Part shown: positions 10,702 through 46,956 of the stretch, in pieces
How the letters are laid out: every line of letters starts with the position of its first letter
Position numbering within the stretch: the first letter of the stretch is position 1
Origin: Candidatus Cloacimonadales bacterium
Lineage (GTDB): Bacteria > Cloacimonadota > Cloacimonadia > Cloacimonadales > JAIOQZ01
Reading direction: 5' to 3'
Assembly (NCBI GenBank): GCA_963662655.2
Contig: CAXXTU010000002.1
Location: 2,208,001 to 2,272,000, forward strand
Length of the DNA stretch: 64,000 nt
Program-made: the position numbers and the translations under genes
The notes under the pieces: generated by a model
Told to the model about the DNA's origin: nothing
The model's input: only the letters and a program-made list of their open reading frames with translations
Databases searched by the model: none

Positions 10702-10817
10702 GCGCGGCGGGACGGCGTTGGAAGCCTTACGGCTTCCTGCCTCCCTGTCCTTTGCAAACATTTGGTTTGCAAAGGACAGGGAGGCGTTTGCTTAGCAAAC
10801 ACGCCGTCCCGCCGCGC
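10702..10817 (+). repeat. Family A four-way-junction element, copy 1
   Basis: Outer stem GCGCGGCGGGACGGCGT/ACGCCGTCCCGCCGCGC encloses three perfect hairpins of 7, 21 and 6 bp. Confidence 0.85.
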
Positions 10818-10836
10818 TCGCTGGCGAGCGCGCAAA

Positions 10837-10865
10837 GAGCCCCGCGAGGATACCTCGCGGGGCTC
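10837..10865 (-). terminator. Hairpin after the giant gene, probable terminator
   Basis: GAGCCCCGCGAGG-ata-CCTCGCGGGGCTC is a perfect 13-bp stem with a short U tract on the minus strand. Confidence 0.6.
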
Positions 10866-10881
10866 GACAGACCGGTAACGG

Positions 10882-13800
10882 TTATTGGGTGGATTTGCGT
10901 AAGGAGCGGACAGCTTCTGTGCTGGCCGTGACGCGGTAATAACGATTTCCTGAAGGAAGCAGGCAATCCCATGATGTTGCGGCGGTGATTGCTTCCAGGG
11001 TCCATTGATCGCCTTGTGCAGTTGGATTCGAAATGGAATAGACTTTGTAGGATGTCGCCCCCGCGACGGAATCCCAGCTCAGGCTGACGTTCCCGCTTTG
11101 TATCGATATCCGCAGGTTTTTCGGTGCGCTCAGGATGCCGGTTGGTAACTGGAATTCGTGCGGATTCACCGGATCACCGATGATCTGATTGCTAACAATG
11201 CTCAGGGTGTCGTCCAGGTCGCAGAATTCACCCGTTTGCTCGTTCCAGGCCTTGAAAGTTACAGTATCGAAGTACTGGTTTGAGTACACCGTGAGGAAAT
11301 ATAGGTAATTTCCCTGTACCTGAATTGGAGAAGCGATTCCCCGGCATTCCTCTCCCACGAAAGCACCGATGACGATGTCCGGGTCGTTCAGAAGCACTTC
11401 ATCTAGCCAAAGGTTTCCTGTGATGTTCGCCGAATACTCGTAATCGAGCGGGTCGAGTTCCCAGCCCGGGATATCCGGTATCGCCGCGATGGCGCGTTGC
11501 GATGTCGCCTGACTGGTCAGTCCGCGCGTCAGGTTGTAGTCAGGGTAGTGGAACGAACCGGAATTCTGCGTGTTAAGCATGTAACCTTCTCCGGGATTCA
11601 TGAACAGCAGTGAACCGACCCAGCCGTAGCCTTCGATGAATTGAGCAAAGCCTTTCTGGCTCTTGATCAGATCGCCGGTCACCGGATTATCGATGTCGTC
11701 GAGCGCTTCGGTGACGCTTACGCTAACGTGCGGGATAAATCCAATCCAGTTCCATCCGCTTCCGTACGTGATACTCGCGGTATATGGGTCTTCCAACAAA
11801 CCGGTAAGCAGAAGCTCATCGTCTGTCGTGAGCTTGATCTTCACCATCTCGGTTGTCGATATCTCAGCCAGAGATCCAACCCATCCGACCCCGTCCACGT
11901 ACTGCGCGTATTCGGTCTGGTTCTTGATTAAATCGCCGGCAACCGGATTCAGGCTCGCGAGCAGCGAATCGACAGACATGGATGTCTGGTTATCCAGATT
12001 CGTGGAGAGCCAGGTCCAGCCCTGGTTGCAGGAGATTGAACGAACCAGATCCGGTTCTGCATGAACAACGGTTGGAGCAACCGGCGTCCCGTAAACCGCT
12101 CCTTCGAGGAACACAAAAGACTCCGCGATTCCATAATGCTCCTTGCATTCGGAGGCGTCCCACACACGGAAGATGATCTCCTCGCCGTACTCGATATCGC
12201 TCTGAACGGTGAGGAAGAAAGCATAGGTGTTCTCGAGGTACGGAACAAGCTCCGTCTGCGCGTAACCGTGGCAGACCAGATTCCCTTGCGCGTCTTCGAT
12301 AAACGCGCCGATAACATCGTTGAGATCGTTCGAGACGACGCCTTCGATAGACATTTGCCCGGTGATCGACATCGAATAATCGTAGCCCCCGATCATCTGC
12401 ATCGACCACGCGGGAGGGTCGGCCAGCACCCCGATCTCGATTACCAGCGGTTCCGATCCCAGTCCGGGGATATTGGCGTAAATCGTATCGCGATAGGTGC
12501 CGAAACCAAGTTGCTCGCTGATGGTGAAGGTCAAAACCTCCGAATCCAGCGGCAACAACGATCCGGACATGGGATTGACGGTAAGCCACACCGGGATGCT
12601 CTCGATGGCGAATGACGAAAGTTGTCCGCCACTGTTGATCAACTGGTTGGTCAGAAGCATCTCCTCTCCCAACGGCTTGATGATCTCCATCTTCGTTGTT
12701 TCCCAGTATACCGGGTTGGCGTTTACGAAGAATTCCCACTCCACCGGCGCTTCGAGCGCGTTGCCGTACAGGTCGTTAACATTCGAAACCGTCACCTCAA
12801 GCGTCTGGTTCTCAATGAAGTGGTTCGCGCTGAGGATCGTAACGACAATCTTGTTCTCGAAACAGCCTACGCCGTATACCACATCGCCGATTCCTCCGAT
12901 AATATCGACCGATACATTCTCGATCGTGACGCTCAAAGGATCGATCAACTCGTCGAAAAAGATGGAAATCTCATCTCCCCTTTGCAGGATTCCGTCGGCA
13001 GGTTCAGGGAGCCCAAGAACCTCCGGACTGTGCTGGTCGATTACGCCGGGAACCGGGGCTGTGTAATACACTCCCAGCAAGCTGTCCACCGCCGCGGCAC
13101 GAATCTCGTACGCATCGTCGCTGAGTTGGTCCACGTACCACGGATAGCGGATGTAATGCGGGGCGGATTCCAGCTCCTCGCGCAGGATTTCGAATCCCGG
13201 ATTCCATATCGTCTCTTCCAGGCGTTTGTACTGGAGCTTGAGCGAATAGAACGAAGGTTTGTCCGTATCGTATTCGCTCAGCAGGACAAACAAGCTGTCT
13301 CCGGCGGCCTGATTGATGATCCAGTTCTCGTGAGGCGACTCAATCGCAACACGGCTGTACGGCGCTTCCCAGGAAACGTCGAACGAGCGCTCGAACTCGA
13401 AGAAGTGGTCGTCTGGGCCATCGTTGCCCCGGTCGCCTTCGCTGTAGAATAGGAGGGTGAGATCATTGTAAACATACTCGGTAGGCCCCTGGCCGACCGT
13501 CATGACCGCCTGGACAGCGCTGTTCCCAAGAACGTCGAACGCCATCGCATCCTCGACCGGCACACCGTTGATCCTGATTTCCGCGCCGTGGGGATTCGTC
13601 TCATTCATCACCGAGAGGTAGTATCGGCGATCCTCGCCCGTCTGGCTCGTGTTGCCCAATGTAAGGACGAATGCGGCCTCTTCTCCTTCAAGAAGGCCGG
13701 TCTCGGTATACCTGTTTGCCGACATGGTCACGCCCTCGCGCGGTTGCGTGTTGGGCTCCCACGGGCAGGATGAAGCGCCCGAAACCAGTTCGAACACCGG

Positions 13801-16800
13801 CGTACCATAGACCGGGTCCACCAGTACATCCACGGTGAAATAGTCAGCGAGCTCGTTCAGATCCGAGGTTTCGTCGTCGTCCGCGAGGGTGAATGACGTC
13901 GTTGTGGTCGTTGTTGTTTCGGAGCTGCTGGATTTGCCTATCGTTACAGCCGTACTGAACTGATAACCCACTTCGCCACCGATTCCGTCTACCGTTCCGC
14001 CAATTTCCAGGCCGAACTCGCCGCTTACCGTGCTGGTGAATTCTATCGTCGCTCCTTCCGTGGATTCGCACTCTTCTTCGTAGGTGTATCCCGCTCCCGC
14101 GTTGAACGAGAGGTTCTCGGGATGATTCGGATTCGGAAGGGCGTTCGCCTTGTTCGTCTCGTTCATATCGAGGAAGCTCTGCCACAAATCGGCGCTCTCC
14201 GCATCTCCGATGGTGATGAGGTTGGGGATAACCGTATTGCGTATCTGATTGTCCGTATATACGTAGACGGTCGCGAATCCGTTGGGGGAGACCATCACGC
14301 TGGTCTCGACATCCACGCTTTGGGTCGTATCATTGTAGCTGATTTCGTTCGTCACGCCCCATATCAGGTTGAGCGCACCGCCGACGAAGAGGTCGGATCC
14401 GTCACCGATAACCTGATCTTCTTCCGATGTTGCATATTCGGTCGAGGTGGTGAACGTGAGCGTCTGTTCCATGCTTTCGGTTTGCTCCGTTCCCACGGTG
14501 ATGCCCATTCCTATGTCCGCCACGATGTCCACTTCGTGCTCCACGCTCATCACGGCGCAACCCGTTTCCCAGGTGAAATCCGGCCCGAGATGAATGTTCA
14601 TGTAGGCGTTGTGCTCCTGACTGGTGCAGACAGCCGCTTCGAAGGAGATGGAGTGACTGCTGCTCTGCGAGAACACGCCCTGGCTGGCGTCTCCGGGAGG
14701 ATCGTGAAGAACCAGGAACGGAATGTCCGGCGATGTTGAGGCGTAGGTAGATTCGAGCGGCTTCACGCCTTCGGTGAGAGCCCAGTCCGTTTGAATGACC
14801 GCGTTGTCGAGGTTGGGATCGTCCACGCGGAATTCGATGCTGTTCTGGTATTGCCGGTTGAATCCGCTGAGCGTGTTGGGCAAGTGCGGTGCGAAACGGT
14901 AAATAACGGATGTTTCACCAGCGAAGTCATGCACGGTTTCGCCCTGCGTTCCGATGTCGTCCTGTACGGTCAGCTCGCAATCCGTGAGCCATGTGACGTG
15001 ATCGGTGAATGAGCCGAAATTGTAGTCTTCAAACGCGCCGATCTCGATCTCGTACCAGATGTTCTGCTGCAACACGTAGAACGGATATTCGGGATACTCC
15101 GCAAACGTGTGTGCTGACAGCGTATCCGGCCATGTGACGCTGATTTCCATGGGAGCTCGCCAAACGTAGGTGAGGGTGTCGGTCACTTCGTCGGGATTCA
15201 GAAGGTCCAGCGCGGCAGTCTTCATGTTCTGGAACTGGTTGTCGATGACCAGGCCGAACGGATCGGAGCCTCTGGGCTCGACGGTTACATTGTAGCTGAG
15301 CGGAGGTACGTTGGTGACCAGATGGGTGCCGTCGAGCCAGCTACCTGTGGTTATCGTGTCACGGTAGCACCCGCAAACCGAATTCAGGTAGATATCAAAT
15401 TCTCCTAACGGCCAGCGGTCGCTTCCGCCTACGACTTCACATCGGAACTGCGTCCGCAGGATGTCCTCGAAATTGATATTGGTGCGCGGATAGGTGACAA
15501 CGCCCAAATCCCAGGTGCGATTCATGGGATGTTCGTTGTAGCTTACCGAGAGTTGGGTATTCTGGCCATGTTCCACTTCCATCGTGTAGTACCCATCTTC
15601 GTCGGTGGTTACGACAGGGATGGTCGTCTCGCCGTTCAGGAGGATCGTGGCTCCATCCACCGCGCAATTCGTTCCCATGAAGATCGCCCTGCCGGTGATG
15701 GGGATCAGCGAGTTATCCGTGAAATCGATGCCGTTCTGCGCGATATTGCTCTCGCTCAGGGTCACGTTGCGCGATTCCGGCTGGAAAAGGTGGCCGGTCT
15801 TGCTGGGGGTAACGGCGAAGGTCGTTACTGCACCGTACGGTATCTGATTAATCTCGTACTCGCCCCACTCGTCCGAGATCGCGCCCAATTGGATATCCGG
15901 ATCGGCAAGCGACCAGTCTGGATTGGCGATTGCGCCGTTGTGGGCGTTGCTGGTGCCGTCGTAGGCGACGCTTCCGGTTCCCTCGTTGAGCGGCCAGTAA
16001 CCTTCAAGTCCCTGCGAATCCCAGGCGACGACGATATTCATGGCTGTCATGATATCGTCCTGCGTACGCGCCGTGCTCCAAACGCGGATGTCGTCGATGT
16101 ATCCCGCGTATCCGGCGCCCGAGACGATGTTCCCGCTCAGCGGGGCGTTCATCAGGAAGGTGCTGTTGGAAGCAACTTCGATACCGTCGATGTAGAGGTA
16201 TGTCGAGGTATTGGCATAGTCGCTGACCATCGCGATATGATGCCAGCCGTTGTCGGAGACGTCGACCGAATCGACAACCTCGGTTATCGTGTGGACTCCA
16301 TCGGTATAGGATAGCGCGCCTCCGCCAATGCTGAACCCGTGGTTCCCCTGGGAGATGACGGGAGTGTTGGCAAGCGGCGTGCGCAGCCAGAGCTCGAAGG
16401 TGCAGTCGTAGGCGTTGTCGCACAGCGGATCCTCGATTTCGAATGAAGAATTTTCGTCGAGTTCCAAGCAGAATCCGTTCGATGGATTGATGGATACTTT
16501 GACGCCGGCAACCGGATTGTTGTTGCTGGTCGTAATCGTTCCGGTGATGACGCCGTTGGGTTTCAGATAGCCGGAATCGCAGTTGGAATCGCCTTCCTCG
16601 TTTCCGTAATATGACTGGACATAGTAGTTGTAGACCTGGCCGGGAACGGCGGTGTAATCCGAATAGGCGTGAGTCTGGCCTTCGAGGGTCACGATGCTGA
16701 TATCGTTCCTGAAAACGCGGAAGCCGGTGGGGACCATATCGTAATCGGGATTGAAGTCCCATAAGAGTTGAACGTATCCCGGATACTCGTTGGCTCCGTC

Positions 16801-19800
16801 CGAGGCGGCCAGATGCCCGGGAGCGAGGTAACCCTGGTGTTCGTACGCGCCCATGTCGACGCGGTCGAATGACGACTCGTCATGCGCGTAGATGCGCGGA
16901 TTGCCGAGAATATCGTTTGCCGGAAGGGCGAGTCCCGTTGTGTCCTCCGTCGCAACGTTGATACAGAACGACCATGCCTCGAGGTCGTAGGGATCGTCGC
17001 CGGATTCCTTGAAATCGGGATCGACGTCGATGTTACCGTCTCCGGCATAACCGCCTTCGATGTCCGACCACGTGATTTCCGTGAGGGTACCGTTCACAGG
17101 ATAGACCGGATCGTTTCCGTTGCCCCAGACGACGCAGTTGGTGATAACGGGCTGGGGATTATGGGTGGAGAAGTTGAGCGCGCCGGAGCCAAGATTCGAG
17201 TTGCCGGCGATCGTGCAGTTTATCAGGCTCACCTCCGACTCGTTGCTGCAGATCGCCCCACCGTCGTCCGGGCAGTAGTTTTCGGCAATGAGGCATCCGG
17301 TCATGTGAAGGTTTGTGTTGTCCAGGTAGATCGCGCCGCCGTCGTCGTAGCTGCTACCATACAAAAGCTTGCAATTGACGAACGTCAAATCCTCGTAGTC
17401 TTCCGCATGGATAATGCCGCCGTCGTTGTGAGAAACATAGTTTCCGGTCAGAAAGTCGGGATAGCTTATGTAGCTTTGCTGTCGGGAGTATTCGATGGTA
17501 CAGTATTCGAAGTGGGAAGATGAAGGGATATCGTCCATGACATCCCGGAAGATGAGGCCACACCACGTTTCGTATTCGGAAGTACGGGTGAATGTTATGG
17601 GCTCGTTGGCGGTTCCGTCCGCGATCAGGTTGCCATAAACGATGAATTCAGAATTGATTGACATGTCGATGGTTACGCCCGGATCGATCGTCACCGTAAA
17701 GCCGGGATAGATGTAGAATCTCCCTTGGAGCGTCTGATCTTCTTCGATTACGGTTCCATCAGGGATGTTGTTGTATCCGAATACCTCGTAAGCTCCGATG
17801 TCGATGCGGTCAAGGGCGTCGTCCAGGCTGCCGACAGCGACTTCGCTATCCATAAAGCGTCCGAAACCGTCGAGTCCTTCCAGCGCTACCCCACTCATGG
17901 AAGTATTGGGATCGCCAGCGTTGATACATGGTGAATTGGAACCCAGTTTCCACGGGAGGTCGCCCGTCTCGCGGAAATTCGGCTGTAAATCAAAGCAGTG
18001 AAGGTAGCTGCCGCCGACCTGCCCCTGATCCTGATACGAGAAGCCTGCCATTCCGCCTTCGATATCGCAGTAAGTGAAATTGATCGCGCTGTATTCCTGA
18101 AAGCTCATCTGATTGCCGTCGGAAGCGGTGTTTCCCCATATGATACAGTTCTTTATGTATCCGTAGACGCTGTAGTAGTACAAACCTCCACCGTGCTCCA
18201 TAGCTGTGTTGCCGGCGATGGTACAGTTGAGGAGATTGACGTCGCAGAGTGTCCAGAGCGCGCCACCCTCCCTGGCGGTGTTATCGACAAACAGGCAGTT
18301 CGTGAACCAGTTTGCGGAGGTGGACCCGCTTTGCGAGACGGCGCCTCCCTTGTTTTGGCATTCGTTGTTCTTGAAGATGCAATTGATGAAGTCGGTATCG
18401 GAGTCGTAAAGGTTGACCGCTCCACCGTCGGCATCGGCGTAGTTGTTCTCGAACACACAGTTTTCTATTACCGGCGTGCCGTGTCCGATGTATATGGCTC
18501 CGCCTTTACCATTGGTTGCTGGCGCGCGGTTGTTCCTGAAAGCACAGTCCTTAACGAGGACTTTATCGACATTGTAGAAAAGGATTCCTCCTCCTTGTAT
18601 ATCGAGTCCACTTCCTCCGGTTTTCCCATTTTCGATAATGCAGTGAATGACTTTGCTGCTGTCATTTGTCGTTGGGGTATTGTAGAAACGTATCGCTCCC
18701 CATCCTGTCGAGGCATCAGCCGTGAAACGAATCGAATCCTGGTGAGAACCGATGGCAAGTAAGCGTCCGTCGATATCGAGCTTATATCGTCCCAGAAATC
18801 TGACGGTCACCCCCGGTTCGATCGTCAGCGTGGCACCGCTTTCAACTGTGATATCGGCGGCGATGTAGATCGTTTCGTCCGACCACACGGTGTCCGAAGC
18901 GATCGATCCGCCCTGTACCTCGTAAGCTGGGATGCCGCTTCCGACCCAATCGGTGTCGTCCATGTTCTGCAGGAATCCCGTATTGCCGTTAGCGATGTCG
19001 TTGAGCTCGGCGCTGGAACCTTCATTGAACTTCCAGCATGCGACAAGGCCGTCTTCGTCGCCCTGAAGGCTGCCATACATTTCCATGCCGATCTCGCTTG
19101 TGGAGAGTGCGCGACTGTAGATATGAAGCTCGTCGATGCAGCCCTCCATGTTGTTGGTAAGTCCCGATCGGTAGATTCCGCCTATCGTCGAGCGGTCGAA
19201 GTTTATCGCTTGCCTGGTGTAACTGAAGTCTGTAGGATCTTCCGTGCCGTCAATATAGAGGTGGGCGTCGCCGTTGTTGTCCGTGAAACAAACGTGATGC
19301 CATGTATCGTCGAACACCACGCCAGCGGATTGGGCTGTATTGATAACGGAGCCCGTCGCGGTGCGAATGTATATCCTGAATGTTCCATCGTGCCCCTGGC
19401 CGAAGCAGAAGAGCGGGTCGTTAACGCCCGTCGTGGATTCGGAGTAGATGCGATCATCGTAGACGGGGGGAGACTTCACCCATGCGCTGATGGTCAACTG
19501 GCTTCCGTTTCCGTAGATCGGCAATCCGCAGTTCTGTTCGACAACAACATAGTCGTCGATTCCGTCGAAATCCAGGGTGGTTCCGGCCAGGACGCCGGTA
19601 GCGGGGATCGTGGAGGCGTGACGCGTGTCTTCACCCATGCCAAACATGTCTCCGTCGCAGGATCCGGCACTATCGTAAACGTATAGCTGGAAGGTCTCGT
19701 CAAGATTCCAGAGCGCAAGGAGCCCGGACTCGGATCCAGTGAGTGATTGAAAACGATTGGCCTTGATCTCTTCCTGCGTTCGAACATCGTTCCACAGGCG

Positions 19801-20292: not shown

Positions 20293-20310
20293 GGATTACT
20301 CCTTTGTATG

Positions 20311-20604: not shown

Positions 20605-20631
20605 TATTCTATACTCCTGAAGGAGATATAG

Positions 20632-20647
20632 GCAATACGCAGGCCAA
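20632..20647 (-). promoter_or_regulatory. Putative sigma54 (-24/-12) promoter
   Basis: The minus strand reads TTGGCCTGCGTATTGC (GG-N10-GC), just upstream of the RBS of 20604, with an AT-rich tract further upstream. Confidence 0.6.
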
Positions 20648-20801
20648 TGCGAACCATTAGATGTTGATCTAATGTAAATATTTATAATAAAAAAAGATGG
20701 ACAGATTTTTCCAGTCCCGGGCCAATCTGGAATGACCGTGCGATTTCGCTATGCCTGCGATATCGCATAGCATTTTCGCAGAGAACGAGTTTGGGGAGAA
20801 T

Positions 20802-23189
20802 ATGACGCACGCGCCGAAATTCATGAGAATGTGGCTGAAGGAACCTCTACTGAGCATCATACTGATTCTGTGCCTGGCTATTGGAATGTCCGCCTATATC
20901 CTGATCACGGTTTACCTTTCGTACCAGCTATCCTGGGACAGGCATCAGCCCAATGGGGAAAACACCTATACATTGCAGACCATCTATACCAAGAACGGCG
21001 AGTGCGGCGGTCCGATGGTTTCCCTGGAACTGGCGAGAACCCTACTGGCGCGGCTTCCGCAGATCAAGGATGTCTACACGGTGATGGCGACCAACTTTAA
21101 TATGCTGTTCATCTACAACGATCAGCCCATCGATATGCGCTCGATATGCATTACATCGAAGAATGCGCTGCAATACCTCGGACTGGATATGCTGTATGGA
21201 GATGCCGCCACGTGCCTGGAGGACAAGAAAAGCCTGGTTATCTCCGAATCAATGGCCCAGAAGATTTTTGGTAATGAAGAGCCCATCGGACAGGTCATTG
21301 AGCAGATGTGGGAAGGGAAGAAGATATCTCGCTTTGTCGTGACGGGTGTTTTTGCCGATTTGCCCGAGAACCGGCATATTCAGACGCAGAGTTTCGTCTG
21401 GATCGACTCGTATGATATAACATTGAAAGAATCATCAACCATGTGCGATCCTGAAGAGTTCAACAAGTCGAGCAGTCGCGTATTCTTCATCCTCGAGGAA
21501 GGTACGGATCCGTCGATTCTGGAAAGGGAAGCGCATAAGATTTTCGATGAAGTGAAAGAGGCCACGCCAAACTACGATCCATCCATCGTACGAATCTTCA
21601 GAGCGGTGCCACTCAAAGAAATCCACTACCAGAATCTGTACTACGAGGAGTTGGAGACCTTCGACAGGAAGAAGCTCGTGAAATTCGGAATTCTCGCGCT
21701 GGCAATTCTCATGGTTCTGGTCAGCAATACGATCATCCTCTTTCTGGTGCGAATTCTCGGGCGCCGCGGCGAAATGGAGATCAGGAGAAGCGTCGGCGCT
21801 TCGGGTACGGATATCGTCAGACAATTTCTGGCAGAACATTCCATTCTTTATATGCTGGTGCTTGTCGTAACATTTGTAACTACCTGGCTAACGATGCCCT
21901 ATATGAAATCCTGGATTCCAGGACTCCCGCATCAGATGTCCATCGATTCGTCATTCTGGCTGTATACGGTCCTCGGGCTGGCGGTTGGCGGTATTGTAAC
22001 GGTGGTTTATCCAGCGCTTCTCGCCAGAATGATGACCGGGAAAAATTCCCGAACAAATCACTGGAAGCTGTTCATGACGATCCAGCTTGTCATTTCTCTT
22101 GTGTTGATGACGAGTTCCATGCTGCTATTCCGGCAGGTTGATCACATCACGAAGAAAGATAACGGTCTCGATGCAAGAAACGTCATGAGCTACCGGTTTG
22201 TGCTGTGCCAGGAAGAGTTTCAGAAACTCGCGCTAGAGCGCACCCGTGATCTACCTGGTGTTGAAAGTGCGGCAGTCACCAATCTGATGCCTACGATGAA
22301 TACGCCATCGACACGCGTAGTTATTCGCGGAAACAAATCCACTGGAGATTATTCCCTTTGTAATATCGGGCTAACAACTCCTGGGCTGTTCGATGTGTTC
22401 AAGATACCCCTCGTGAAAGGACGAGTTTGGGATGACGCCGATTCACCTGGCGTGATCGTCAATGAGGAGTTTGTGAGACGCTATGGACATCACGGGATTG
22501 ACCTGGGGGTTGAAGTCAAAATGGGCGAGGACAACCCAACCGTCGACCATTCCGCGGGTGAAATCATCGGAATTGTGAAGGATTGCTGGTGGACGGATGT
22601 GCGGAAGCCCGTCGATCCGATCGTTTACTGCAACGACAGGATTTATGAAGTGAATTTCCATTACCGCTTACGGCCCGGATACGAGAAAGAGACCATTGCT
22701 GAGATCAAGAAGGTATTCTACGAGTTGGAGAAGCAGTATCAATTCCGTGAGGTGGATTACGATACCCAGTGGACAATCGATCACGACTTCGATGCGGAAA
22801 GGGCGTTCCTGCAGATCGTTCTCGTCGCTTCTCTGATCGGCGTGTTCTTCACCTTTGTTGGCGTCTATGGATTGACGGCGTACACGTTGAAGCGCCAGAT
22901 GCGCGGAATGGCGATTCGGAAAGTGTTGGGCGCTACTTCCTGGGATATGCTGAAACACCTTCTGAAAGATTACACCCTTATCCTCGGTATCGCGCTGGGA
23001 ATCTCGATTCCGTTTTCTTACTATCTGCTTACCCGATGGCTTTACGGGTTCGCAAGCAGGGTGCAGCTGTGCATCGTCGATTTCGCATTTGGCTTGATCT
23101 GCACATTTCTGATCGTCTTCATCGCGGTTTTGATCAATTGGAGCAGGCTCAATCGATCGGATTTATTTGATATCTCGAGAACCGAGTAA
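20802..23189 (+). CDS. MacB/FtsX-like ABC transporter permease (duplicated domains)
   Basis: LAIG..A; EMEIRRSVGA and MAIRKVLGA FtsX motifs; two periplasmic domains; GGGGAG RBS. Confidence 0.88.
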   Translation: MTHAPKFMRMWLKEPLLSIILILCLAIGMSAYILITVYLSYQLSWDRHQPNGENTYTLQTIYTKNGECGGPMVSLELARTLLARLPQIKDVYTVMATNFNMLFIYNDQPIDMRSICITSKNALQYLGLDMLYGDAATCLEDKKSLVISESMAQKIFGNEEPIGQVIEQMWEGKKISRFVVTGVFADLPENRHIQTQSFVWIDSYDITLKESSTMCDPEEFNKSSSRVFFILEEGTDPSILEREAHKIFDEVKEATPNYDPSIVRIFRAVPLKEIHYQNLYYEELETFDRKKLVKFGILALAILMVLVSNTIILFLVRILGRRGEMEIRRSVGASGTDIVRQFLAEHSILYMLVLVVTFVTTWLTMPYMKSWIPGLPHQMSIDSSFWLYTVLGLAVGGIVTVVYPALLARMMTGKNSRTNHWKLFMTIQLVISLVLMTSSMLLFRQVDHITKKDNGLDARNVMSYRFVLCQEEFQKLALERTRDLPGVESAAVTNLMPTMNTPSTRVVIRGNKSTGDYSLCNIGLTTPGLFDVFKIPLVKGRVWDDADSPGVIVNEEFVRRYGHHGIDLGVEVKMGEDNPTVDHSAGEIIGIVKDCWWTDVRKPVDPIVYCNDRIYEVNFHYRLRPGYEKETIAEIKKVFYELEKQYQFREVDYDTQWTIDHDFDAERAFLQIVLVASLIGVFFTFVGVYGLTAYTLKRQMRGMAIRKVLGATSWDMLKHLLKDYTLILGIALGISIPFSYYLLTRWLYGFASRVQLCIVDFAFGLICTFLIVFIAVLINWSRLNRSDLFDISRTE

Positions 23190-23332
23190 ATAATGAGTTA
23201 TCTTCAATAATATCTAGTAATTACAGGAATTCTCTGCCTCGAATACCTAAATTAATCCTGGATTATTAATTTGCTTGACATGAAGTGTGATATATGCAAG
23301 CTTTAATCTTGATTAACCGCATGGAGGCAGCA

Positions 23333-24835
23333 ATGAAGACGTTACTGGTATTTTTCTTACTCGTATTGGCTTTGCAATTGGCAGCAGAAATGGAATTCAC
23401 CCAGCAGGGGACGATTCCTGTGTCGAACGGAACTTTTGCTTATGCGGAACTGAAAAACTATCACGGCGATGAGCGAATCCTCGTTTATTCGCAAACGACA
23501 ACGAGTATCTACGTCAAAGTATGTGATCCGGAAGGCAACTTAATCGAATCGTTTACTTTGACAACGACGGACAATACCGATGAACGGAAGATGAGTTATT
23601 TTGAATACGATGACACTGGTTACATGGTTGTGAATTATACGATTAGGGGTCAACGATCATATAATGGAGATAATTGGACAAGATCAGAAAGGGCATACAG
23701 TGACATATACAATCTGGAAACGGGTTCTCTTGTTGATCATCAAAACGTTGCCAGTAAAACGAGTTCTTATTCTCAGTATGAAGATCCTTATGAACCATGG
23801 TACAATTATGATTCAACAATAACCTGGACGCTAAACCCACAGCAACCTGTCACTCAGTACTTCGGTTCCGGATATTGCAAACTGAATGTACCATTCAGGT
23901 TTAGAAGACATTCATATTACACAGCCTATGATCAGATCAATGAGGAGGATGAAGTTCTCTATCCATTATACGAAGAAGTATTTGATGTGACATCTGTTAA
24001 TTACCAGTATTTTGAAGATACCGGGATGTACATATTGAGTGGGCAGGATGAGCAGCTACCTAAGATTTCTGCAGGATACAATAGGACTTTTTACGATTAC
24101 AACGATGCATGGCCAATTCGGCAATGGGTTGTTTGGGGTTTTATCTATGATGATTCACTGATAATGTCAGAACTGTTAGCGGCTGAAGCAGATTTTTCCT
24201 TTTTCGGAGTCTATGAAACCAGTAGATATGTTTTACTGTCTGATTACTACCCTGAGAGTAGTCAGTCGTTTACATTGTTAACCATTACTGACTACGAAGA
24301 CTTTGAATTCGGTGAACGAGATCTTTCAGGCAACATTATCTGGTCAAGCAGTGAGACGACTTTGGATATGTATGACGACCTTATAGCAAAACAATATCAC
24401 TCCTGTTGCTTCATCAATTGTGAAGGGAATCCTTGTACTCTCTATTACAGGGATGAGGGCAGCTCTTGGGAAGCCAGGAACAGGCTTGACGGTAGTATTG
24501 TAGATCACGGGACTTTTAGCTTTCCCACGCCCGTAAATTTAGGGAGGTTGCTGGACGGAACGATCGTGCTATTATCGGAAGGCGACTCCGATGTGGTGGT
24601 GTATCACGCAAATACAGGAATCATTGAGATTGAGCTGAACATAGAGGCCGGTTCTGGATTTGTGAATCTGGATTGGAATGACATCGAGGGCGCCACAGGT
24701 TACAAGGTCTACTCGGCGGATACGCCCGACGGCGTGTTCACGTTTCTTGCCGATGCGAGCATGAGCCAGCATTACATCACGACTTTACCGGATACGCAGA
24801 AGTATTACAAAGTGACGGCGGTATTTGGGGAATAG
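23333..24835 (+). CDS. Hypothetical exported Tyr/Asp-rich beta protein with a C-terminal FN3-like domain
   Basis: GGAGG RBS; signal peptide; ends in VNLDWNDIEGATGYKVYSADTPDG...KYYKVTA. Confidence 0.8.
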   Translation: MKTLLVFFLLVLALQLAAEMEFTQQGTIPVSNGTFAYAELKNYHGDERILVYSQTTTSIYVKVCDPEGNLIESFTLTTTDNTDERKMSYFEYDDTGYMVVNYTIRGQRSYNGDNWTRSERAYSDIYNLETGSLVDHQNVASKTSSYSQYEDPYEPWYNYDSTITWTLNPQQPVTQYFGSGYCKLNVPFRFRRHSYYTAYDQINEEDEVLYPLYEEVFDVTSVNYQYFEDTGMYILSGQDEQLPKISAGYNRTFYDYNDAWPIRQWVVWGFIYDDSLIMSELLAAEADFSFFGVYETSRYVLLSDYYPESSQSFTLLTITDYEDFEFGERDLSGNIIWSSSETTLDMYDDLIAKQYHSCCFINCEGNPCTLYYRDEGSSWEARNRLDGSIVDHGTFSFPTPVNLGRLLDGTIVLLSEGDSDVVVYHANTGIIEIELNIEAGSGFVNLDWNDIEGATGYKVYSADTPDGVFTFLADASMSQHYITTLPDTQKYYKVTAVFGE

Positions 24836-24925
24836 GAGTCGGAATCATCTTGTTCAGAGCCGGTTCGGAGTAAATATTCATTGACACGGCATCGTGTCTG
24901 CTCACGCTCTTGGTGAGGAGATCCC

Positions 24926-26980
24926 ATGGAACTAACAACCAGAAAATTTCTGCAAGAGCGCGCAGCCATGATCCTCACCGCAGCGCTGGTGGTGCCCATT
25001 TCCATATTTCTTGTAACCGGCTACTTACTGCTCAGTACCATTGCAAAACAGAAGGATGTAACTACCCTGAACAGCCTGGCGCAAAACGTGCGGTTTCTCG
25101 AAAGCAAGCGCACCAGCCAGTCGATCCAGATGCAGGCGGCCATCACCGATACGTTGTATGCTTTCTTCGACGAGAAGCCCGACAGCCGGATTATTTCCTT
25201 TCTGACGCGCGAGAATCCCGACCTGGATTCGTATGTTCTATTCACCGAAGATCATGTCGTTGGCTCAGGGATTCAACTCTCGAAGGAGCAGCGCGAGAAG
25301 CTGATCGAGATTTCCGCAGAGAAGAAGGAAGGCTCGGGCTATTACCTCGGAAGCGGGAAGCGGTACATCATGACTTATTCGGTTATCAACGCCGAATCCA
25401 CGAATCCGACGATCCTTGTTCTGTACTGGAACTACACGCTTCCGGAGAACCTGTACATCAATACACTCAAGGATTTCCACACCATGCGCATCGACTGGGA
25501 TCGCATCAAAACAGCTCCTCAGGACAAGTATGAAACCGAGCGCCGATTGATCGACAACATCAACGCAACTTCGGAAGGTATATTCATCGAGGAGTTGCCC
25601 GGGAATCTACTGTCGGCCCATTTCTTCCTGCACGATGTATTCGGTAAGCCGATTGCGATTGTAACCATGCAGACCGAGCGCTACTTTGTCTTGCAGATGA
25701 AGCGCCTCTTCTGGATCGGAGGGCTCTCGCTTTCGTTCCTCTCGATCGTGTCGGCATTGTTGCTTGCACGCAAGGCCGCGTCCTATCTGATGAATCCGGT
25801 GGAGAAGCTCAGCTATCAGATGAATCAAATCGCGAGCAATCCCGTGCATTCGGAAGAGATCAATCAGGGCGAGTTTTCGCAGTTGGATTTGCTCGTTTCG
25901 TCGTTCAACGGAATTCTTCGATCCTTCAAGGAATATTACGGTTCGGTGCAAAAATACGAGAGCATCGTCACGAACATCAAAGAGGGGATTTTCTGGAGCG
26001 ACGACAAGGGGTACATGGTTATCTCCAACAAAGCCTTCGACGATATCTTCAAGAATCAGGGGCCGATCGGCAATCTCAGCGAGATATGGGGGGGGGGCAA
26101 GGATGATTTCAAGCAAAGGATAGCCGGATTCGAGGACGGGAACGAGATTGAAATCGATGGCCGGTACTATCTGCTTTTCGTTAACGAGTACAGGCAGAAC
26201 GGGAAAGCGAATTACCTCGGTCTCATTTCCGAGATAACCCAGCAAAAGGAAGCCGAGATCGAGCGACAGCGCCTCGAGATGCAGCTTCAGACCACGAAGA
26301 AGCTTGCCGAGATCGGTCTGTTGATTGAAGGGATTTCTCACAACCTCAATTCCCCGCTTCACAACATGCTCGCCTATGTTCACTTCCTTCGGGGTGAGTT
26401 CGGCGACCACAAGGACCTCATCAAACTACAGGAAAACGGTCAACGAATGGCCGAGATCATCAAATCGCTGATGAACAGGATGTCCGAGGCGGTGGTTTTT
26501 TCCGCGAGGCCGATAGACATCAACGAGCTGGTCGGGCTGGAGTTGGCGTTCTTCGAGCATAACTTGTATTTCAAGAACAACGTTCGCAAGGTCATTCGTC
26601 TTCAGGAAAATCTTCCTGATGTGATGGCCGTTTACAGCGATATCAGTCAAGCACTGTCCAATCTGATTTCCAATGCGGTGGATGCCGTGAAGGGCACGCG
26701 GGACAAGACGATTACAATCGAGACCTTTCTGCGCGACGAGAATCTGGTTATCTCCGTGGAAGACACAGGTGTGGGGATTCCGGAAGAAAGGCTGGGAAGC
26801 ATTTTCGAGCCGTTCCAGTCGTCAAAGGAAACCGCCAACGGGATTGGTCGGGGAATAGGCCTGGCGATTTCGAGGCAGTTGTTGGAAAGCTACGACGCCA
26901 AGGTCAATGTGGAAAGCGTTGTCAACCAGGGGAGCCGATTCGAAATCGTCTTCCCGAAGGAGCGCTTTGTCGACGAGTAG
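24926..26980 (+). CDS. Membrane sensor histidine kinase (periplasmic sensor, HAMP, PAS, HisKA, HATPase)
   Basis: Two TM helices; ISHNLNSPL H-box; NLISNAVDA, DTGVGI, IFEPF and GRGIGL boxes. Confidence 0.92.
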   Translation: MELTTRKFLQERAAMILTAALVVPISIFLVTGYLLLSTIAKQKDVTTLNSLAQNVRFLESKRTSQSIQMQAAITDTLYAFFDEKPDSRIISFLTRENPDLDSYVLFTEDHVVGSGIQLSKEQREKLIEISAEKKEGSGYYLGSGKRYIMTYSVINAESTNPTILVLYWNYTLPENLYINTLKDFHTMRIDWDRIKTAPQDKYETERRLIDNINATSEGIFIEELPGNLLSAHFFLHDVFGKPIAIVTMQTERYFVLQMKRLFWIGGLSLSFLSIVSALLLARKAASYLMNPVEKLSYQMNQIASNPVHSEEINQGEFSQLDLLVSSFNGILRSFKEYYGSVQKYESIVTNIKEGIFWSDDKGYMVISNKAFDDIFKNQGPIGNLSEIWGGGKDDFKQRIAGFEDGNEIEIDGRYYLLFVNEYRQNGKANYLGLISEITQQKEAEIERQRLEMQLQTTKKLAEIGLLIEGISHNLNSPLHNMLAYVHFLRGEFGDHKDLIKLQENGQRMAEIIKSLMNRMSEAVVFSARPIDINELVGLELAFFEHNLYFKNNVRKVIRLQENLPDVMAVYSDISQALSNLISNAVDAVKGTRDKTITIETFLRDENLVISVEDTGVGIPEERLGSIFEPFQSSKETANGIGRGIGLAISRQLLESYDAKVNVESVVNQGSRFEIVFPKERFVDE

Positions 26981-27007
26981 GTGACTCTGAGATTCAGCAC
27001 CGACTCA

Positions 27008-27136
27008 GCGCCGGGGGGGCGGCGTCTGCGCGGAGCGCAGTGAAACCATGGGGCGTCAGAAGGATTACTTCTGACGCCCCATGGTTTTCGGGAGCCGAAT
27101 GCTTCCGCATCGGTTCCCACGCCGCCCCCCCGGCGC
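27008..27136 (-). repeat. Family A four-way-junction element, copy 2
   Basis: Perfect 18-bp outer IR GCGCCGGGGGGGCGGCGT encloses three hairpins, including a 6-bp stem with a 3-nt loop and an about 21-bp stem with a 5-nt loop. Confidence 0.85.
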
Positions 27137-27176
27137 GGGGTTAGCTCGCTCGACTTCATTCAATCGGATTCGTGGA

Positions 27177-28289
27177 TCAGAAAGCCTCTTTCACGTTGAA
27201 GTACAAGCCGGTCCTCATCTCGCTTTGATCCGAATCGTCGTAACGATCGCTTGCATTGTTGTAAGAGATGTCCAGGCGAATATTCAGATTCTGCTTCGTG
27301 TCCCACGCATAGCGGAAACCAACGCCTCCTGCGACTTTCGGATCGCCCGATGAGAATTTGTCGAACCTGGAAGCGACGTCCCCCACACCGCCAAAAACGG
27401 CAGCACCAAAACGATAGAATAGAGGGAAACGATATTCGGCTTGCAGCATCAAGGCGTTGTGATCGCGGTAGCGTCCTTCGTAGAACCCACGCATGGTGTC
27501 GTGATCGCAGAGCTCGGCCAATTCTTGAAATGGGGCTGAGCCATCCGTGAAAAGGTATACGTACTGGAAGGCAAGCACATGCTTCTTGAAGAGCGTGTAG
27601 TAGGCGCGAGCGTCGAGAGAAGATTTCGAGAACGTGAAATCGCTGCCCCAGCCTTCGTGGTACTGCATCGATTGCGCTTGAATCAGGTAACCGGATGTCG
27701 GGAAGATGACTGCGTTGCGTACATCGTACGCAGCTTTCAAGCCGATGCCGTGAACCGTAAACGATTCACTGCCGGGCAGGAAGCCGCTGTCGAGAGCTCC
27801 TCCGTTCTCAACTCTGGTAATGTATGATCGGAGCACCCGGTAGTTCGGGCCAATCGAGAGGCTGCCTGAAATGTCGCGCATGACGCCCAGTTCAAACTCG
27901 AGACTGTTGTCCGTGTAGTCTTCCTCTTCCATGATGGTGGTGTCGTTTCCAATTCCGCAATATTGATTAGGGTATTTTCGCAGGTCTATTTCCAGAATGC
28001 CTTGATAGTCGGGGGAAAGGTAATGCTCGGCAGAGATGTTTATTCTGATTTGTTTCTCGGTTGTGTACAGCCCGACCGCGCTATACATGTTCATCGGATT
28101 GGCAAGTCCGGGCGTATCCATGTCATAAGCCTCCCGATAGCGCAAAACATACGCGCCAAGTCCCCAGCCGGTTTCAGGAGAGTGCATGATTACCGGCAGG
28201 ATGGACAGGCCAGAGGTTTCTTCTTCATCCACGGAGAATAAAAAAGTTGCAACCAGAAACAGATAAACAATAAGACAGATTTTTTTCAC
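27177..28289 (-). CDS. BamA/TamA (Omp85) family beta-barrel without POTRA domains
   Basis: Signal peptide; SPETGWGLG; MRGFYEGRYRD loop motif; EYRFP; G.GFRY; terminal EAF. Confidence 0.85.
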   Translation of the reverse strand: MKKICLIVYLFLVATFLFSVDEEETSGLSILPVIMHSPETGWGLGAYVLRYREAYDMDTPGLANPMNMYSAVGLYTTEKQIRINISAEHYLSPDYQGILEIDLRKYPNQYCGIGNDTTIMEEEDYTDNSLEFELGVMRDISGSLSIGPNYRVLRSYITRVENGGALDSGFLPGSESFTVHGIGLKAAYDVRNAVIFPTSGYLIQAQSMQYHEGWGSDFTFSKSSLDARAYYTLFKKHVLAFQYVYLFTDGSAPFQELAELCDHDTMRGFYEGRYRDHNALMLQAEYRFPLFYRFGAAVFGGVGDVASRFDKFSSGDPKVAGGVGFRYAWDTKQNLNIRLDISYNNASDRYDDSDQSEMRTGLYFNVKEAF

Positions 28290-28301
28290 GAGCTTTCTCC
28301 A

Positions 28302-29492
28302 CTAAAAAGCTTCCATGAGTGCAACATAAATACCGTAATAGGTGTCGTCCTCACTGGAAATACCTGGAATTCTGCGAATGTTATTGATGGCGAAATCGAT
28401 CCGGAGGTTGAGGTTCTGCGTTTTTTCGAGCCGATAGCGCAGTCCCATTCCTGCCGCCAGTTTCACTCTTTGCAGGTTTAGCTCTTCCAGATCATGGTAC
28501 ACGTCGCCGATCGCTCCGAATAGGTCTCCTCCGAAGGAACGGTAGATTGGGAAGCGATACTCGAGCTGAGCCGAAAGGTAGTTGCGATCGCGGAAACGCG
28601 TTTGATGGTACCCACGCAGCATCTCGATGCCGCCGAGTTTGTATAGCTGAAGAAACGGAACCTCGCCGAAGCTGTTCTTCGAAATGAGTTGCAGGGCGAG
28701 AATGTGTTTTCTTGCAAGTGTGATGAATTTGCGCATGTCCAGACTTGACTGCGCGAAATTGTAATCGCTGCCGAGCGATTTATGGTGCGACGTGAAATCC
28801 CATGAGACCAGTAAGCCCTTCGATGCGAAGTAAATGTTGTCGCGGGTGTCCCAGTCGGTAGAAATCCCCAGGCCGACAATCTTATAAGTGTCCGATCCTT
28901 CAATGTTCCCATTTCTCAGCATGCCGTCATCGTCTCGCTCCTTGATGTCGGATGAAAAGAAATGGATGCTGGGTCCAAGCGACCAATCGCTGAGTAGTTT
29001 TCGCATTATGGAGAGGTTTGCGCCGTATTGCAGGGACAGGAAGCTTTCTTCGTCTTCGGAACGGGTATCGTTTCCAATACCGTAAAATGATTCCGGGAAA
29101 TGCTTACCCTGGATTAGAAATTTCATGCGGGTTTTATCGAAGATATCACCGTCGAACTGGGCCATGACAATCGCCTGCTCTTCTTGTGTACCGAAGCCCG
29201 TAAAGGTAAAATGGTCGGTTAATTGATGGTTCCGTTCACGGAAGTAAACAACGGAAGCTCCCAGCCCGGTCCCGGTTTCCGGTGCGTAGAAAGCGATCGG
29301 CACGAACACGAATTTGCGATCGTTTTTGCCAGAATCTTCCTTCGGCTTATTCGGTTCGAGATTCAGGATTTCACGTATTCTGCGCACGGATTCCCGGTGA
29401 TCCCGTTCGTCTTCCTCCTTTTCATCCGCGAAAAGGGAGAAAGCCAAAACGAGGAGCAGAACCAGGAAAAACAGTTTATCGTAGATTTTCAT
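28302..29492 (-). CDS. BamA/TamA (Omp85) family beta-barrel without POTRA domains, tandem paralogue
   Basis: Signal peptide; APETGTGLG; LRGYHQTRFRD; EYRFP; G.GLRY; terminal EAF. Confidence 0.85.
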   Translation of the reverse strand: MKIYDKLFFLVLLLVLAFSLFADEKEEDERDHRESVRRIREILNLEPNKPKEDSGKNDRKFVFVPIAFYAPETGTGLGASVVYFRERNHQLTDHFTFTGFGTQEEQAIVMAQFDGDIFDKTRMKFLIQGKHFPESFYGIGNDTRSEDEESFLSLQYGANLSIMRKLLSDWSLGPSIHFFSSDIKERDDDGMLRNGNIEGSDTYKIVGLGISTDWDTRDNIYFASKGLLVSWDFTSHHKSLGSDYNFAQSSLDMRKFITLARKHILALQLISKNSFGEVPFLQLYKLGGIEMLRGYHQTRFRDRNYLSAQLEYRFPIYRSFGGDLFGAIGDVYHDLEELNLQRVKLAAGMGLRYRLEKTQNLNLRIDFAINNIRRIPGISSEDDTYYGIYVALMEAF

Positions 29493-29563
29493 CGGCTGAA
29501 GTTAAAAATGTCCCGTCATTGCATGTCAAGCGAAAAGGCATGGTTGCTTCACATCTTTCCGCG

Positions 29564-30514
29564 TCACGAATACGTGTCCTCCGGTTCGTCATCTTCATCG
29601 ACTCCGAACATTTTCCGGAAGGAGCCGCCTAGATTCTTGAATGCTCCCCATGTCTTTTTTCCGCTCATGACGATCAGGTCCCGGTAGATGCGTTGCAAGA
29701 CATCCGAGAGGATGTTACGGGTGGTGTCCGCAATTACATGAACGGCGGGGAACAGTTCGTTTTCCTTTTTGATGTAGAGCATGGTACAATATCGTTCCGT
29801 GATGATCGAGATTCGGGTGAGGAGCGCTGCGTTCACCATGCCGTCGGCTAGGGAGCTTAGCATGATGTTCGCTCCCGGGAGCTTTTTCATGCCGTCGGTG
29901 GCGTATTTGGAGAAGAGCTCGGTAATGAAGTATTCTACGCCTTCCGATCCTGCGATCATGGTGGAGAGCATGACCAGCCTGCCAATGGATAGCAAATCGC
30001 GATTGGTAACTCTGCCCCGGTAGAGCTTGAAGAGCTCTCGTACCATGTTTATACTGCCCGATAGCATGAGAAACGCGTCGATGAATCCATTTTGGGAAAG
30101 ACTGGTGCTATAGAATAGCGCTGTTACGTACCTTTTCCGAATGCGCGCGCCTTCCTTCTTCAGTTCCTTTACAACGGTATTGTATCCCTTCTCGTCGGCC
30201 GTTATGGAGGAAAAATCGAATGATTGCTCGATAAGGTAATGGTTCCTTCTGAAGCATTGCATCCGTTTTTCGATCAATTCCGGGACCTTGCTCTTATCCT
30301 TGGCCGGAGGCTGATTCGGCTTCAACATGATGATCCGGGTTAAAGGTATTATCACGAAGTACACCGTTAGTCCGGCAAGCAAGACGAGGAAGCCGTACCC
30401 GGCATACGGGTGCAGGAGATAGAGCGATGTGTAGAGTTGCAGGAATTCTTTAATCACGAAGTAGATCAGGAATAGCGACAGGAAAAACAGGATTCGCTGG
30501 ATCGTTTTCATCAT
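29564..30514 (-). CDS. DUF697/YcjF-like membrane protein
   Basis: Two N-terminal TM helices; STSLSQNGFIDA, LYRGR and SLADGMVNAALLTRI motifs. Confidence 0.7.
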   Translation of the reverse strand: MMKTIQRILFFLSLFLIYFVIKEFLQLYTSLYLLHPYAGYGFLVLLAGLTVYFVIIPLTRIIMLKPNQPPAKDKSKVPELIEKRMQCFRRNHYLIEQSFDFSSITADEKGYNTVVKELKKEGARIRKRYVTALFYSTSLSQNGFIDAFLMLSGSINMVRELFKLYRGRVTNRDLLSIGRLVMLSTMIAGSEGVEYFITELFSKYATDGMKKLPGANIMLSSLADGMVNAALLTRISIITERYCTMLYIKKENELFPAVHVIADTTRNILSDVLQRIYRDLIVMSGKKTWGAFKNLGGSFRKMFGVDEDDEPEDTYS

Positions 30515-30523
30515 TCACCTCGT

Positions 30524-31096
30524 TTATTGTGGGAAATGTGTCTTGGATACCCTGCCGTCCGCACCAAAACTGACATACGCTTTCTGCGAAAAATCCCACT
30601 TGTATATCCACAGGCCTTTATCCGGTACCTCAAAGCGAGAGTCGGGAGGGAATCCCAAGGTTCTGATTACTGCTTCTTTACTCATCCCGGGTAAAACGGA
30701 GCCACGAAGGATGTTCTGTCTCTCGGTGTCGGTGAGATTGCCGGTCAGCTCCTCAAAGGTGTTCGAGGTAAACATTCTATGCAGCAGGTCTTCCGTCTGA
30801 AGATGCTTGTCGCTGTCCCGATCGATAATTACAGTAAACAGCTTACCTCGTACCTCGAAGGAAACCTGCGGATTGCTGGATACGGACAGGTCGTCGATGA
30901 CATCAAGTTTCGTGATCATGGTTCCAGCAGGCAGGAACCGGCCGGATATGAAATTGACCGATTCGATATGGGTCGGATCCGTGTACCATAGATTGTGAGC
31001 CAGATACCAGGTTTTGGTTCTGTCGAGTTCATGGCCCTGCGCAATCAGGACCATGGCACAAATCAGGATCATTTGAGCAATAACGAATTTCTTCAT
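30524..31096 (-). CDS. Hypothetical exported protein with an SmpA/BamE-like C-terminal motif
   Basis: Signal peptide; VLPGMSKEAVIRTLGFP...WIY...VSF..DGRV; AAGGA RBS. Confidence 0.6.
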   Translation of the reverse strand: MKKFVIAQMILICAMVLIAQGHELDRTKTWYLAHNLWYTDPTHIESVNFISGRFLPAGTMITKLDVIDDLSVSSNPQVSFEVRGKLFTVIIDRDSDKHLQTEDLLHRMFTSNTFEELTGNLTDTERQNILRGSVLPGMSKEAVIRTLGFPPDSRFEVPDKGLWIYKWDFSQKAYVSFGADGRVSKTHFPQ

Positions 31097-31178
31097 CTTG
31101 TCGTCCTTATCATTTCATGAATGCAATATTGACCTCCTCTTCAAGCAGGCAAGAAAAAAATAATACGAGTTACCGACC

Positions 31179-31359
31179 GCGCGGCGGGGCGGCGGAAGAA
31201 GCCCTACGAATCCAGCATCATGCTTGCACAGGTCGGATCAAATCGGAACAACCATGTGCTGGATATTCCGTAGGGCTTCTTGGTATATTTCCCCATGTAA
31301 ACAATACGCTTACATGGGAAATCTACCGTGTGCGAAGCACACCCGCCGCCCCGCCGCGC
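31179..31359 (+). repeat. Family A four-way-junction element, copy 3
   Basis: Perfect 17-bp outer IR GCGCGGCGGGGCGGCGG encloses a long first hairpin, an about 18-bp second hairpin and GTGTGC-GAA-GCACAC. Confidence 0.85.
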
Positions 31360-46952: not shown

Positions 46953-46956
46953 CATG

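Follow-up and report, generated by a model that had tools for sequence, protein, structure and literature searches.

A 64,000-nucleotide (nt) stretch of DNA from Candidatus Cloacimonadales bacterium (contig CAXXTU010000002.1, positions 2,208,001 to 2,272,000; here called the window) contains three copies of a repeat, family A, in which a GC-rich outer stem closes three hairpins to form a predicted four-way junction. The same fold is fixed in 76 copies across the genome. The family is apparently undescribed and most likely works as a non-autonomous repeat of the REPIN/bcr1 type; no description of it, or of a class of four-way GNA repeats, was found in the accessible literature, subscription papers and supplements lying outside the search. 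The reading we favor, at slightly better than even chances, is that family A is an old non-autonomous mobile element read as folded single-stranded DNA (ssDNA) by a trans-acting nuclease or transposase that did not turn up among the enzyme families searched. Most described small palindromic repeats are simple hairpins with a known or suspected enzyme; family A keeps a branched fold and discrete arm lengths over 76 divergent copies, with no partner gene found. Its 76 variants, alike at the junction face and free in the distal arms, form a natural library in which to look for proteins that read branched ssDNA, and they could help decide whether repeats of this sort cause genome shuffling or only mark it. 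Should the family prove to be just an orphaned REPIN-like relic, its value would be descriptive.

A fixed predicted fold over divergent copies

The studied genome (G000; 3.81 Mb in two contigs, C1 and C2; 98.95% complete) was scanned for hairpin 3 within an enclosing GC-rich inverted repeat, a criterion that itself selects for pairing, and yielded 69 copies compared with 0 in block-shuffled C2. End-profile searches added 7, giving a set of 76 that excludes two truncated right halves and a degenerate right-end-like remnant in the window (1942..1970, - strand), which consists of an outer arm and a decayed hairpin 3 without a partner arm. All outer-arm matches in G000 are elements, remnants or chance coding matches. 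With a right-end profile built from sequence only, 76 of 78 matches fell inside complete elements and the other 2 were truncated; further copies thus keep the three-hairpin topology, the loss of which the initial annotation of the window had named as grounds for abandoning its reading. A covariance model built from 28 short copies recovered known loci, some of them partially, as well as one truncated copy, and no new locus.

Elements measure 105-203 nt, and their arm lengths are quantised. Outer stems run to about 13-18 bp (consensus GCGCGGCGGGGCGGCG), with three copies reaching 21-24 bp. The base of hairpin 1 is GAAGCC-like; 33 copies have a hairpin 1 of 16-33 nt, 42 one of 75-97 nt and a single copy one of 60 nt, and most of the long forms are built from two stems, a basal and a further one, separated by an asymmetric internal loop. 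In most copies hairpin 2 spans 42-52 nt, or roughly two helical turns; summed over copies it has 1315 Watson-Crick pairs vs. 48 defects. Its similarity between copies is barely above that of shuffled hairpins (median score 0.09 vs. 0.07), but the earlier description of about 18-21 bp of unrelated sequence needs amending, as small subfamilies exist and 8 of the 76, all with a long hairpin 1, are merely 18-23 nt. Hairpin 3 is usually 15 nt, mostly GTGYGC- or GTTTGC-loop-complement. The 6-bp stem and 3-nt loop at first said to be invariant are found in 71 of 76 copies, the exceptions being four with a 4-nt loop and one with a 5-bp stem. Hairpin 3 loops are GNA or GNNA in 57 copies, the flipped form TNC in 5 and of other types in 14. 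Flanks had also been called related, and weak, asymmetric conservation does extend about 20-25 nt outside the stem, but the left and right flanks of one element pair no better than they do after permutation; no extended flank pairing beyond the stem was found in family A. Homology with the congener G001 ends 23-49 nt short of the stem in six informative comparisons. Exchange of modules between parts of the element gave weak correlations alone (rho ≤0.13), a measure by which swapping and saturation are indistinguishable, and capture of target DNA into hairpin 2 or hairpin 1 was no better than permuted. Long hairpin 1 was also considered as a guide or spacer and rejected, its matches being of 16-18 nt alone, near chance level.

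The three window copies lie where they had been placed, with outer stems of 17, 18 and 17 bp closing three hairpins. A1 (10702..10817, + strand, short class) has outer arms at 10702-10718 and 10801-10817, hairpin 1 at 10720-10737, hairpin 2 at 10739-10785 (21 bp) and hairpin 3 at 10786-10800 (loop TTA). A2 (27008..27136, - strand, short class) has outer arms at 27136-27119 and 27025-27008, with hairpin 1 at 27118-27090, hairpin 2 at 27089-27041 and hairpin 3 at 27040-27026, the loop TCC of which is a flipped GGA. A3 (31179..31359, + strand, long class) places its outer arms at 31179-31195 and 31343-31359, hairpin 1 at 31196-31281, hairpin 2 at 31282-31327 and hairpin 3 at 31328-31342 (loop GAA). 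Its weakly conserved flanks cover 31155..31178 (+) on the left and 31360..31385 (+) on the right, starting with TGAG, the commonest right-flank start across the family. The DNA minimum free energies of A1, A2 and A3 are -67, -70.9 and -69.3 kcal/mol (z = -14.9, -14.0 and -13.4), and none of 200 shuffles did as well. Junction spacers are 0-2 nt, and up to 3 in some folds, rather than the 0-1 nt first given. The GNA triloop that had been stressed in these copies is present on the hairpin-1-first strand in A3, on the opposite strand only in A2, and on neither strand in A1.

The copies also show covariation. Across the 28 short copies, two-sided changes came to 260, compared with 104 in shuffles, and none of the 500 shuffles or the slid controls reached that level, using an alignment that was not structure-guided and copies that are related and were found partly through pairing. 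Departures from the outer-stem consensus are compensated in 102 of 141 cases. On the GNA strand, G-T vs. A-C mismatches number 6 vs. 12 in hairpin 2, 12 vs. 20 in long hairpin 1 and 4 vs. 1 in the outer stem, and there is no G-T or G-U excess on either strand in hairpin 2 or long hairpin 1. GCGNAGC is described as an unusually stable DNA mini-hairpin, the RNA version tested in the same work, r(GCGAAAGC), being much weaker (PMC13037366). In the comparison with Rfam that the initial annotation had called for, Rfam 15 returned no match at gathering score for the window or for 10 loci, the latter giving sub-threshold miRNA hairpins only. Nor are the elements oriented with respect to genes (13 vs. 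21, p = 0.23). Together, the missing G-T excess, the missing orientation to transcription, the DNA-type GNA loop and the missing Rfam match suggest that the fold likely matters as ssDNA, in the form of the hairpin-1-first strand. Of the two readings proposed at the outset, the conserved four-way junction, likely as ssDNA, is supported by the mismatch counts and the 57 GNA or GNNA loops, and the cloverleaf RNA is not supported.

Set against 2868 genes called in G000 with a simple codon model, all 76 copies are intergenic, in 34 tandem, 22 convergent and 20 divergent gaps (expected 49.5, 10.6 and 15.9), and convergent gaps are over-represented (p = 1e-4). The convergent excess (22 vs. 10.6) would suit a structured RNA, whether a transcript stabiliser, a terminator or a small RNA, as would the very stable predicted RNA folds and a copy kept at one promoter region in two congeners. 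Such an RNA is nevertheless very unlikely given the 20 copies in divergent gaps, the DNA-type triloop and the same mismatch, orientation and Rfam results.

Spread and copy history

Family A copies are at least 4171 nt apart (median 38 kb) and form no tandem clusters, and homology between paralogues is mostly confined to the element and about 20 nt of flank. Their dispersal over intergenic sites, with related copies at non-orthologous positions, supports the non-autonomous dispersed unit of the initial annotation. Nearest paralogues have a median arm identity of 0.70. Because no pair reaches 90% identity in the arms except A3 and its twin carried by the insertion sequence (IS) ISL3, the family appears to have been amplified in the G000 lineage without self-copying at present; this absence of recent copies fits a lost enzyme.

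A pattern search gave 58 matches in G000, 1 in each of three congeners (G001, G002 and G003) and 0 in 37 other relatives; looser patterns added matches at control level only. The G002 copy is 91% identical to G000:C1:115433-115548. None of its neighboring genes has a match in G000, and G001 matches them at 70-73%; the contig is therefore not stray G000 DNA, and a family A unit has moved. A collection of genome contigs gave 2 matches, both from congeners, and metagenomes gave 2 that lack the fold and were judged chance. The covariance model, run on 150 genomes of the phylum with 24 candidates scored per genome, found G001 only and missed the long-arm copy known from G003. A four-way scan independent of sequence, over 2.4 of the 3.9 Mb of G001, returned a tRNA and one weak fold and, as it missed the known copy, is insensitive. 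Within the genomes and collections searched, family A is restricted to G000 and its congeners. This distribution bears on another idea, in which the repeat serves as a chromosome-wide signal for primase or single-strand initiation, comparable to the hairpin origin of phage G4. Natural mini-hairpins are described in the G4 and St-1 origins, ssiA and N4 promoters (PMC13037366), but the family had 0 matches in a viral contig collection, none in phages and one 30-nt chance match in plasmids; it shows no orientation to replication or replichore bias (37 vs. 36 on C2), and the congeners manage with one copy each, which makes a priming role extremely improbable.

Contigs of one sample, possibly the one from which G000 came, span A1 and A2 and show no empty allele, although such contigs drop rare variants. 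Two runs (X1 and X2) compared with window 31172-31368 have contigs with family A arms whose flanks are absent from G000 (3 of 3 motifs tested), pointing to additional copies that belong to a co-occurring lineage or to DNA missing from the assembly.

A3 itself was carried along in a duplication linked to ISL3. The interval 31155..32378 (+) holds the repeat and the 5′ part of a neighboring gene joined to half an ISL3. The repeat and gene part are 97.8% identical to G000:C2:2158699-2159255, with the fusion to the half ISL3 at 31700-31709. The order in the interval is a circular permutation of the paralogous locus (G000:C2:2158699-2160623), the junction being a 10-nt microhomology. The permuted half ISL3 with host DNA has the look of passenger DNA moved in a one-ended ISL3 event. 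That ISL3 carried A3 as a passenger, and that 2 of 12 full ISL3 copies abut an A element, might be taken to mean that family A is an ordinary miniature inverted-repeat transposable element of a DDE IS, with the outer stems as terminal inverted repeats and an incidental interior fold, as in bcr1. Its terminal inverted repeats, lack of an open reading frame (ORF), length of 105-203 nt, dispersal and lineage restriction agree with this, and bcr1 is described as about 155 bp, cruciform and with compensatory changes (PMC3184786). The outer stems, however, match neither ISL3 nor IS3 ends, a match with known IS ends being the other ground on which the initial annotation would have dropped its reading, and they are absent from the four IS110 loci of G002. 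The target duplications it had proposed to look for did not appear either: across 75 copies the longest flanking direct repeat averages 4.8 nt vs. about 5.0 nt when permuted, in a test limited by old copies, unsettled ends and the lack of an exact empty site. The internal geometry, moreover, seems constrained beyond what a DDE transposase needs, and on balance we consider this origin distinctly improbable. In G002 the IS110 family has 17 copies (L209-L212), and G000, G001 and G003 have none.

Under the favored reading of an old mobile element, the hairpin-1-first strand would fold once exposed, and the enzyme would read the junction face (outer stem, GAAGCC base and GTGCGC-GNA-GCGCAC mini-hairpin) and the arm lengths rather than distal arm sequence. 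It would have copied the unit into intergenic DNA without target duplication, in the manner of HUH (Y1) enzymes, which insert without duplicating the target. Amplification would have been limited to the G000 lineage and have since ceased. Selection on the fold would maintain pairing, aided by arm-to-arm template-switch repair, and the long perfect hairpins would either break and seed rearrangements or accumulate at operon borders tolerant of rearrangement. Template switching is reported to correct imperfect inverted repeats in bacteria (PMC5941160) and to invert spacers (PMC8604942), and it would explain stems that continue into flanks and the five flipped loops.

Several observations weigh against this account. 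No enzyme gene was found beside any A copy, and the congener Y1, GIY-YIG and DUF559 genes examined carry other repeats. The GTAG/CGTC tag is absent, each of the four words occurring in at most 5 of 75 copies per side. Neutral repair alone appears insufficient to keep the fold, because in five disjoint close paralogue pairs (10 of 75 copies) one-sided stem changes (32) exceed compensated ones (9), with 3 doubly broken. In these pairs loops differ at 48 of 175 sites and stems at 44 of 301 pairs, a comparison that points to constraint on the stems and is biased by the choice of pairs at ≥80% identity. G001 and G003 each have one copy between queD and a divergent gene, with differing outer stems and unalignable arms, reflecting either prolonged retention, with the arms completely replaced, or insertion more than once; the shared position speaks for a host function or a hot spot more than for a dead selfish relic. 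No clean empty site is available. At the queD locus, compared across four genomes, G002 (82-88% match to G003 there) has unrelated sequence rather than a precise gap, and the gap in G000 is short. That no target duplication is seen may come only from age and later rearrangement. At the queD locus the element tips a longer imperfect inverted repeat (L008 1240-1590 in G003; L010 1320-1610 in G001), the ends of which are mirrored TCAAACAT/ATGTTTGA boxes of the divergent promoter region.

Synteny breakpoints and candidate enzymes

Synteny was compared with G001 over 2.4 of its 3.9 Mb. Both flanking genes lie in the compared part for 18 of the 76 A gaps, and 16 of these 18 pairs are non-adjacent in G001; of the two pairs scored as "adjacent", one is separated by 1.45 kb. 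Among other gaps, breaks were found at 89 of 210 long controls, 26 of 158 short controls and 23 of 31 gaps holding a second repeat, family B (see below). The excess over long controls is significant (p = 1.3e-4), also against an orientation-matched expectation of 8.9 (P = 3e-4), and 35 of 38 informative A sides are breaks. Overall, G000 and G001 differ by 376 break sides vs. 1726 collinear ones, and A lies on 35 of the 376 (about 9%). Thirteen sides, chosen because they fell in the compared region or were clustered, were followed into the other congeners, where the G001 neighbor is kept at 10 of 12 scorable sides in G002 (one of them 5.4 kb apart) and at 9 of 12 in G003. Because the neighbor is kept at most of them, these borders appear mostly stable among the repeat-poor congeners; G001, G002 and G003 share somewhat more similarity with one another than with G000, and the comparison has no outgroup. 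Family A marks breakpoints, and causation is a separate proposal. Long hairpins are described as stalling replication and destabilising genomes (PMC3733652), and this would be a plausible link to the breakpoints.

The same data could be read as the trace of a recombination site, close to the recombinase substrate suggested by the initial annotation, at which a tyrosine recombinase or a junction-processing enzyme of the host shuffles gene blocks by means of a Holliday-junction- or attC-like ssDNA fold. The breakpoint enrichment and the stability of congener borders agree with this, as does an A copy 28 nt behind a xerC-like gene, and attC likewise is described as keeping its length as arm sequence varies (PMC5737381). 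However, the reciprocal break side carries A in 4 of 35 cases, about the chance level set by its 9% share, and similar trends are seen for family B and for the repeats of G001 itself, found at 39 of 197 break junctions vs. 9 of 240 collinear ones. There are also no cassette arrays, no replichore bias and no IntI over cut-off, and the other tyrosine recombinase loci lack an A arm; we thus judge a recombination site unlikely. A bolder version, which we hold to be rather unlikely, is a four-way junction that is already formed, has arms of ruler length and a GNA mini-hairpin, and needs no dedicated neighbor enzyme; host junction-processing or tyrosine-recombinase machinery would cut or recombine it and in this way spread the unit and shuffle the chromosome. 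If true, family A would have driven large-scale shuffling of the G000 chromosome through shape-read ssDNA.

No enzyme could be linked to family A among the families searched in G000, a search by family rather than a scan of the whole proteome. Y1/RAYT (PF01797) had 0 matches in G000, where DUF559, IS110, serine resolvase and GxxExxY were likewise without a match; IS91/Y2 gave no match there, with controls equally silent, and IntI (TIGR02249) gave 0 over cut-off in 8 genomes and also 0 in 14 controls. GIY-YIG is represented in G000 by UvrC-sized genes and one broken small gene with its own repeats, and reverse transcriptase (RT) by one broken gene. None of four HNH matches lies beside an A copy by coordinates. 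Of six tyrosine recombinases, only the xerC-like one adjoins an A copy, and a search for dif-like motifs gave no usable result. Orphan ends were inspected for an autonomous version, and no ORF was seen between ends. Y1 and DUF559 genes are present in all three congeners and absent from G000; eight Y1 loci of relatives, out of 35 matches listed, were examined and have no A end, and the congener A copies, one each, are not beside a Y1 gene. The co-occurrence with GIY-YIG, DUF559 or RAYT genes that the initial annotation had anticipated was thus not seen in G000, and the congener genes examined are flanked by different repeats.

Several mobile-gene loci came to light in these searches. Behind the xerC-like gene in G003 and G001 (L063/L064) is a 137-aa Y1 transposase with AGCCCA-type palindromic repeats, several of them GTAG-tagged; the corresponding border in G000 has an A copy on one side and a family B copy at the other former neighbor. 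In G003 (L045, L049) a small GIY-YIG gene, in two copies, sits in a stretch that matches a repeated rRNA-like region of G000, the insert being absent from G000. G008 has 13 near-identical tyrosine recombinase genes, 18 RT matches, 15 Y1 matches and a tandem DUF559 cluster. An integrative element beside tRNA-Arg at G000:C2:3403000-3419500 holds three tyrosine recombinases with ArdC-like and DNA methyltransferase-like ORFs (labels by eye). G000 combines missing Y1/RAYT and DUF559 genes and broken small GIY-YIG and RT genes with heavy shuffling relative to G001.

Related repeat systems and the window

Integron attC sites have RYYYAAC/GTTRRRY core sites and extrahelical bases. No such cores were found in family A, the end profiles of which, read by eye, show GC-only arms. 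It resembles attC and the DUF1874 motif in that the fold is kept and the sequence varies at the ssDNA level (PMC5737381), and differs from attC in having no cassette arrays, no fixed orientation behind genes, no IntI, and a branched fold rather than a rod. REPINs, the REP dimers mobilised by RAYT, are described as extragenic, non-autonomous and lineage-restricted to tens of copies, with two inverted GC-rich arms around a variable spacer and an ssDNA fold, some spacers having one or two small stem-loops (PMC8049555, PMC3733652). Family A shares this plan, but its arms are not self-contained REP hairpins, and its spacer is a three-hairpin junction of quantised lengths, with copies never in tandem clusters. 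The bcr1 repeat of the Bacillus cereus group is also a cruciform of about 155 bp with compensatory changes and non-conserved positions, and is described as having 5-bp flanking direct repeats, two side stem-loops and transcription (PMC3184786); family A has instead no detectable duplication, three hairpins, the GNA mini-hairpin and two size classes. The SRM/NTS repeats of Ssn GIY-YIG enzymes are likewise oriented ssDNA hairpin repeats expanded in single lineages, but SRMs are described as simple hairpins of 20-50 nt that flank ssn genes (PMC11893778), and the GIY-YIG genes here carry TGTCATCCTGAGCG-type repeats, not A.

Family B occurs in the window at 39299-39420, 46914-47069, 60754-60882 and 4992-5022. 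It forms a long rod whose internal loops are fixed (GCAGATTCGTTCGATC ... GATCGGGCGAAGATGC) and whose tip varies, and has 101 motif matches genome-wide. It is oriented to replication (26 vs. 71 on C2, or 26 of 97 in the leading-strand sense). Allowing ≤2 mismatches, 2.4 Mb of G001 contain 20 matches, and the 400 nt around the start of each A copy are free of B motifs.

Within the window, A1 lies between the stop of a 3136-aa ORF on one side and the start of a phosphatidylserine decarboxylase gene on the other, and its gap is a synteny break relative to G001. A2 is placed between convergent histidine-kinase and Omp85 genes, a pair that is non-adjacent in G001, G002 and G003. The gap of A3 is flanked by divergent genes. 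Elsewhere in the genome, tandem 53-nt units at G000:C2:772319-772611, and also near 184540-184620, are related to the sequence just upstream of one A copy.

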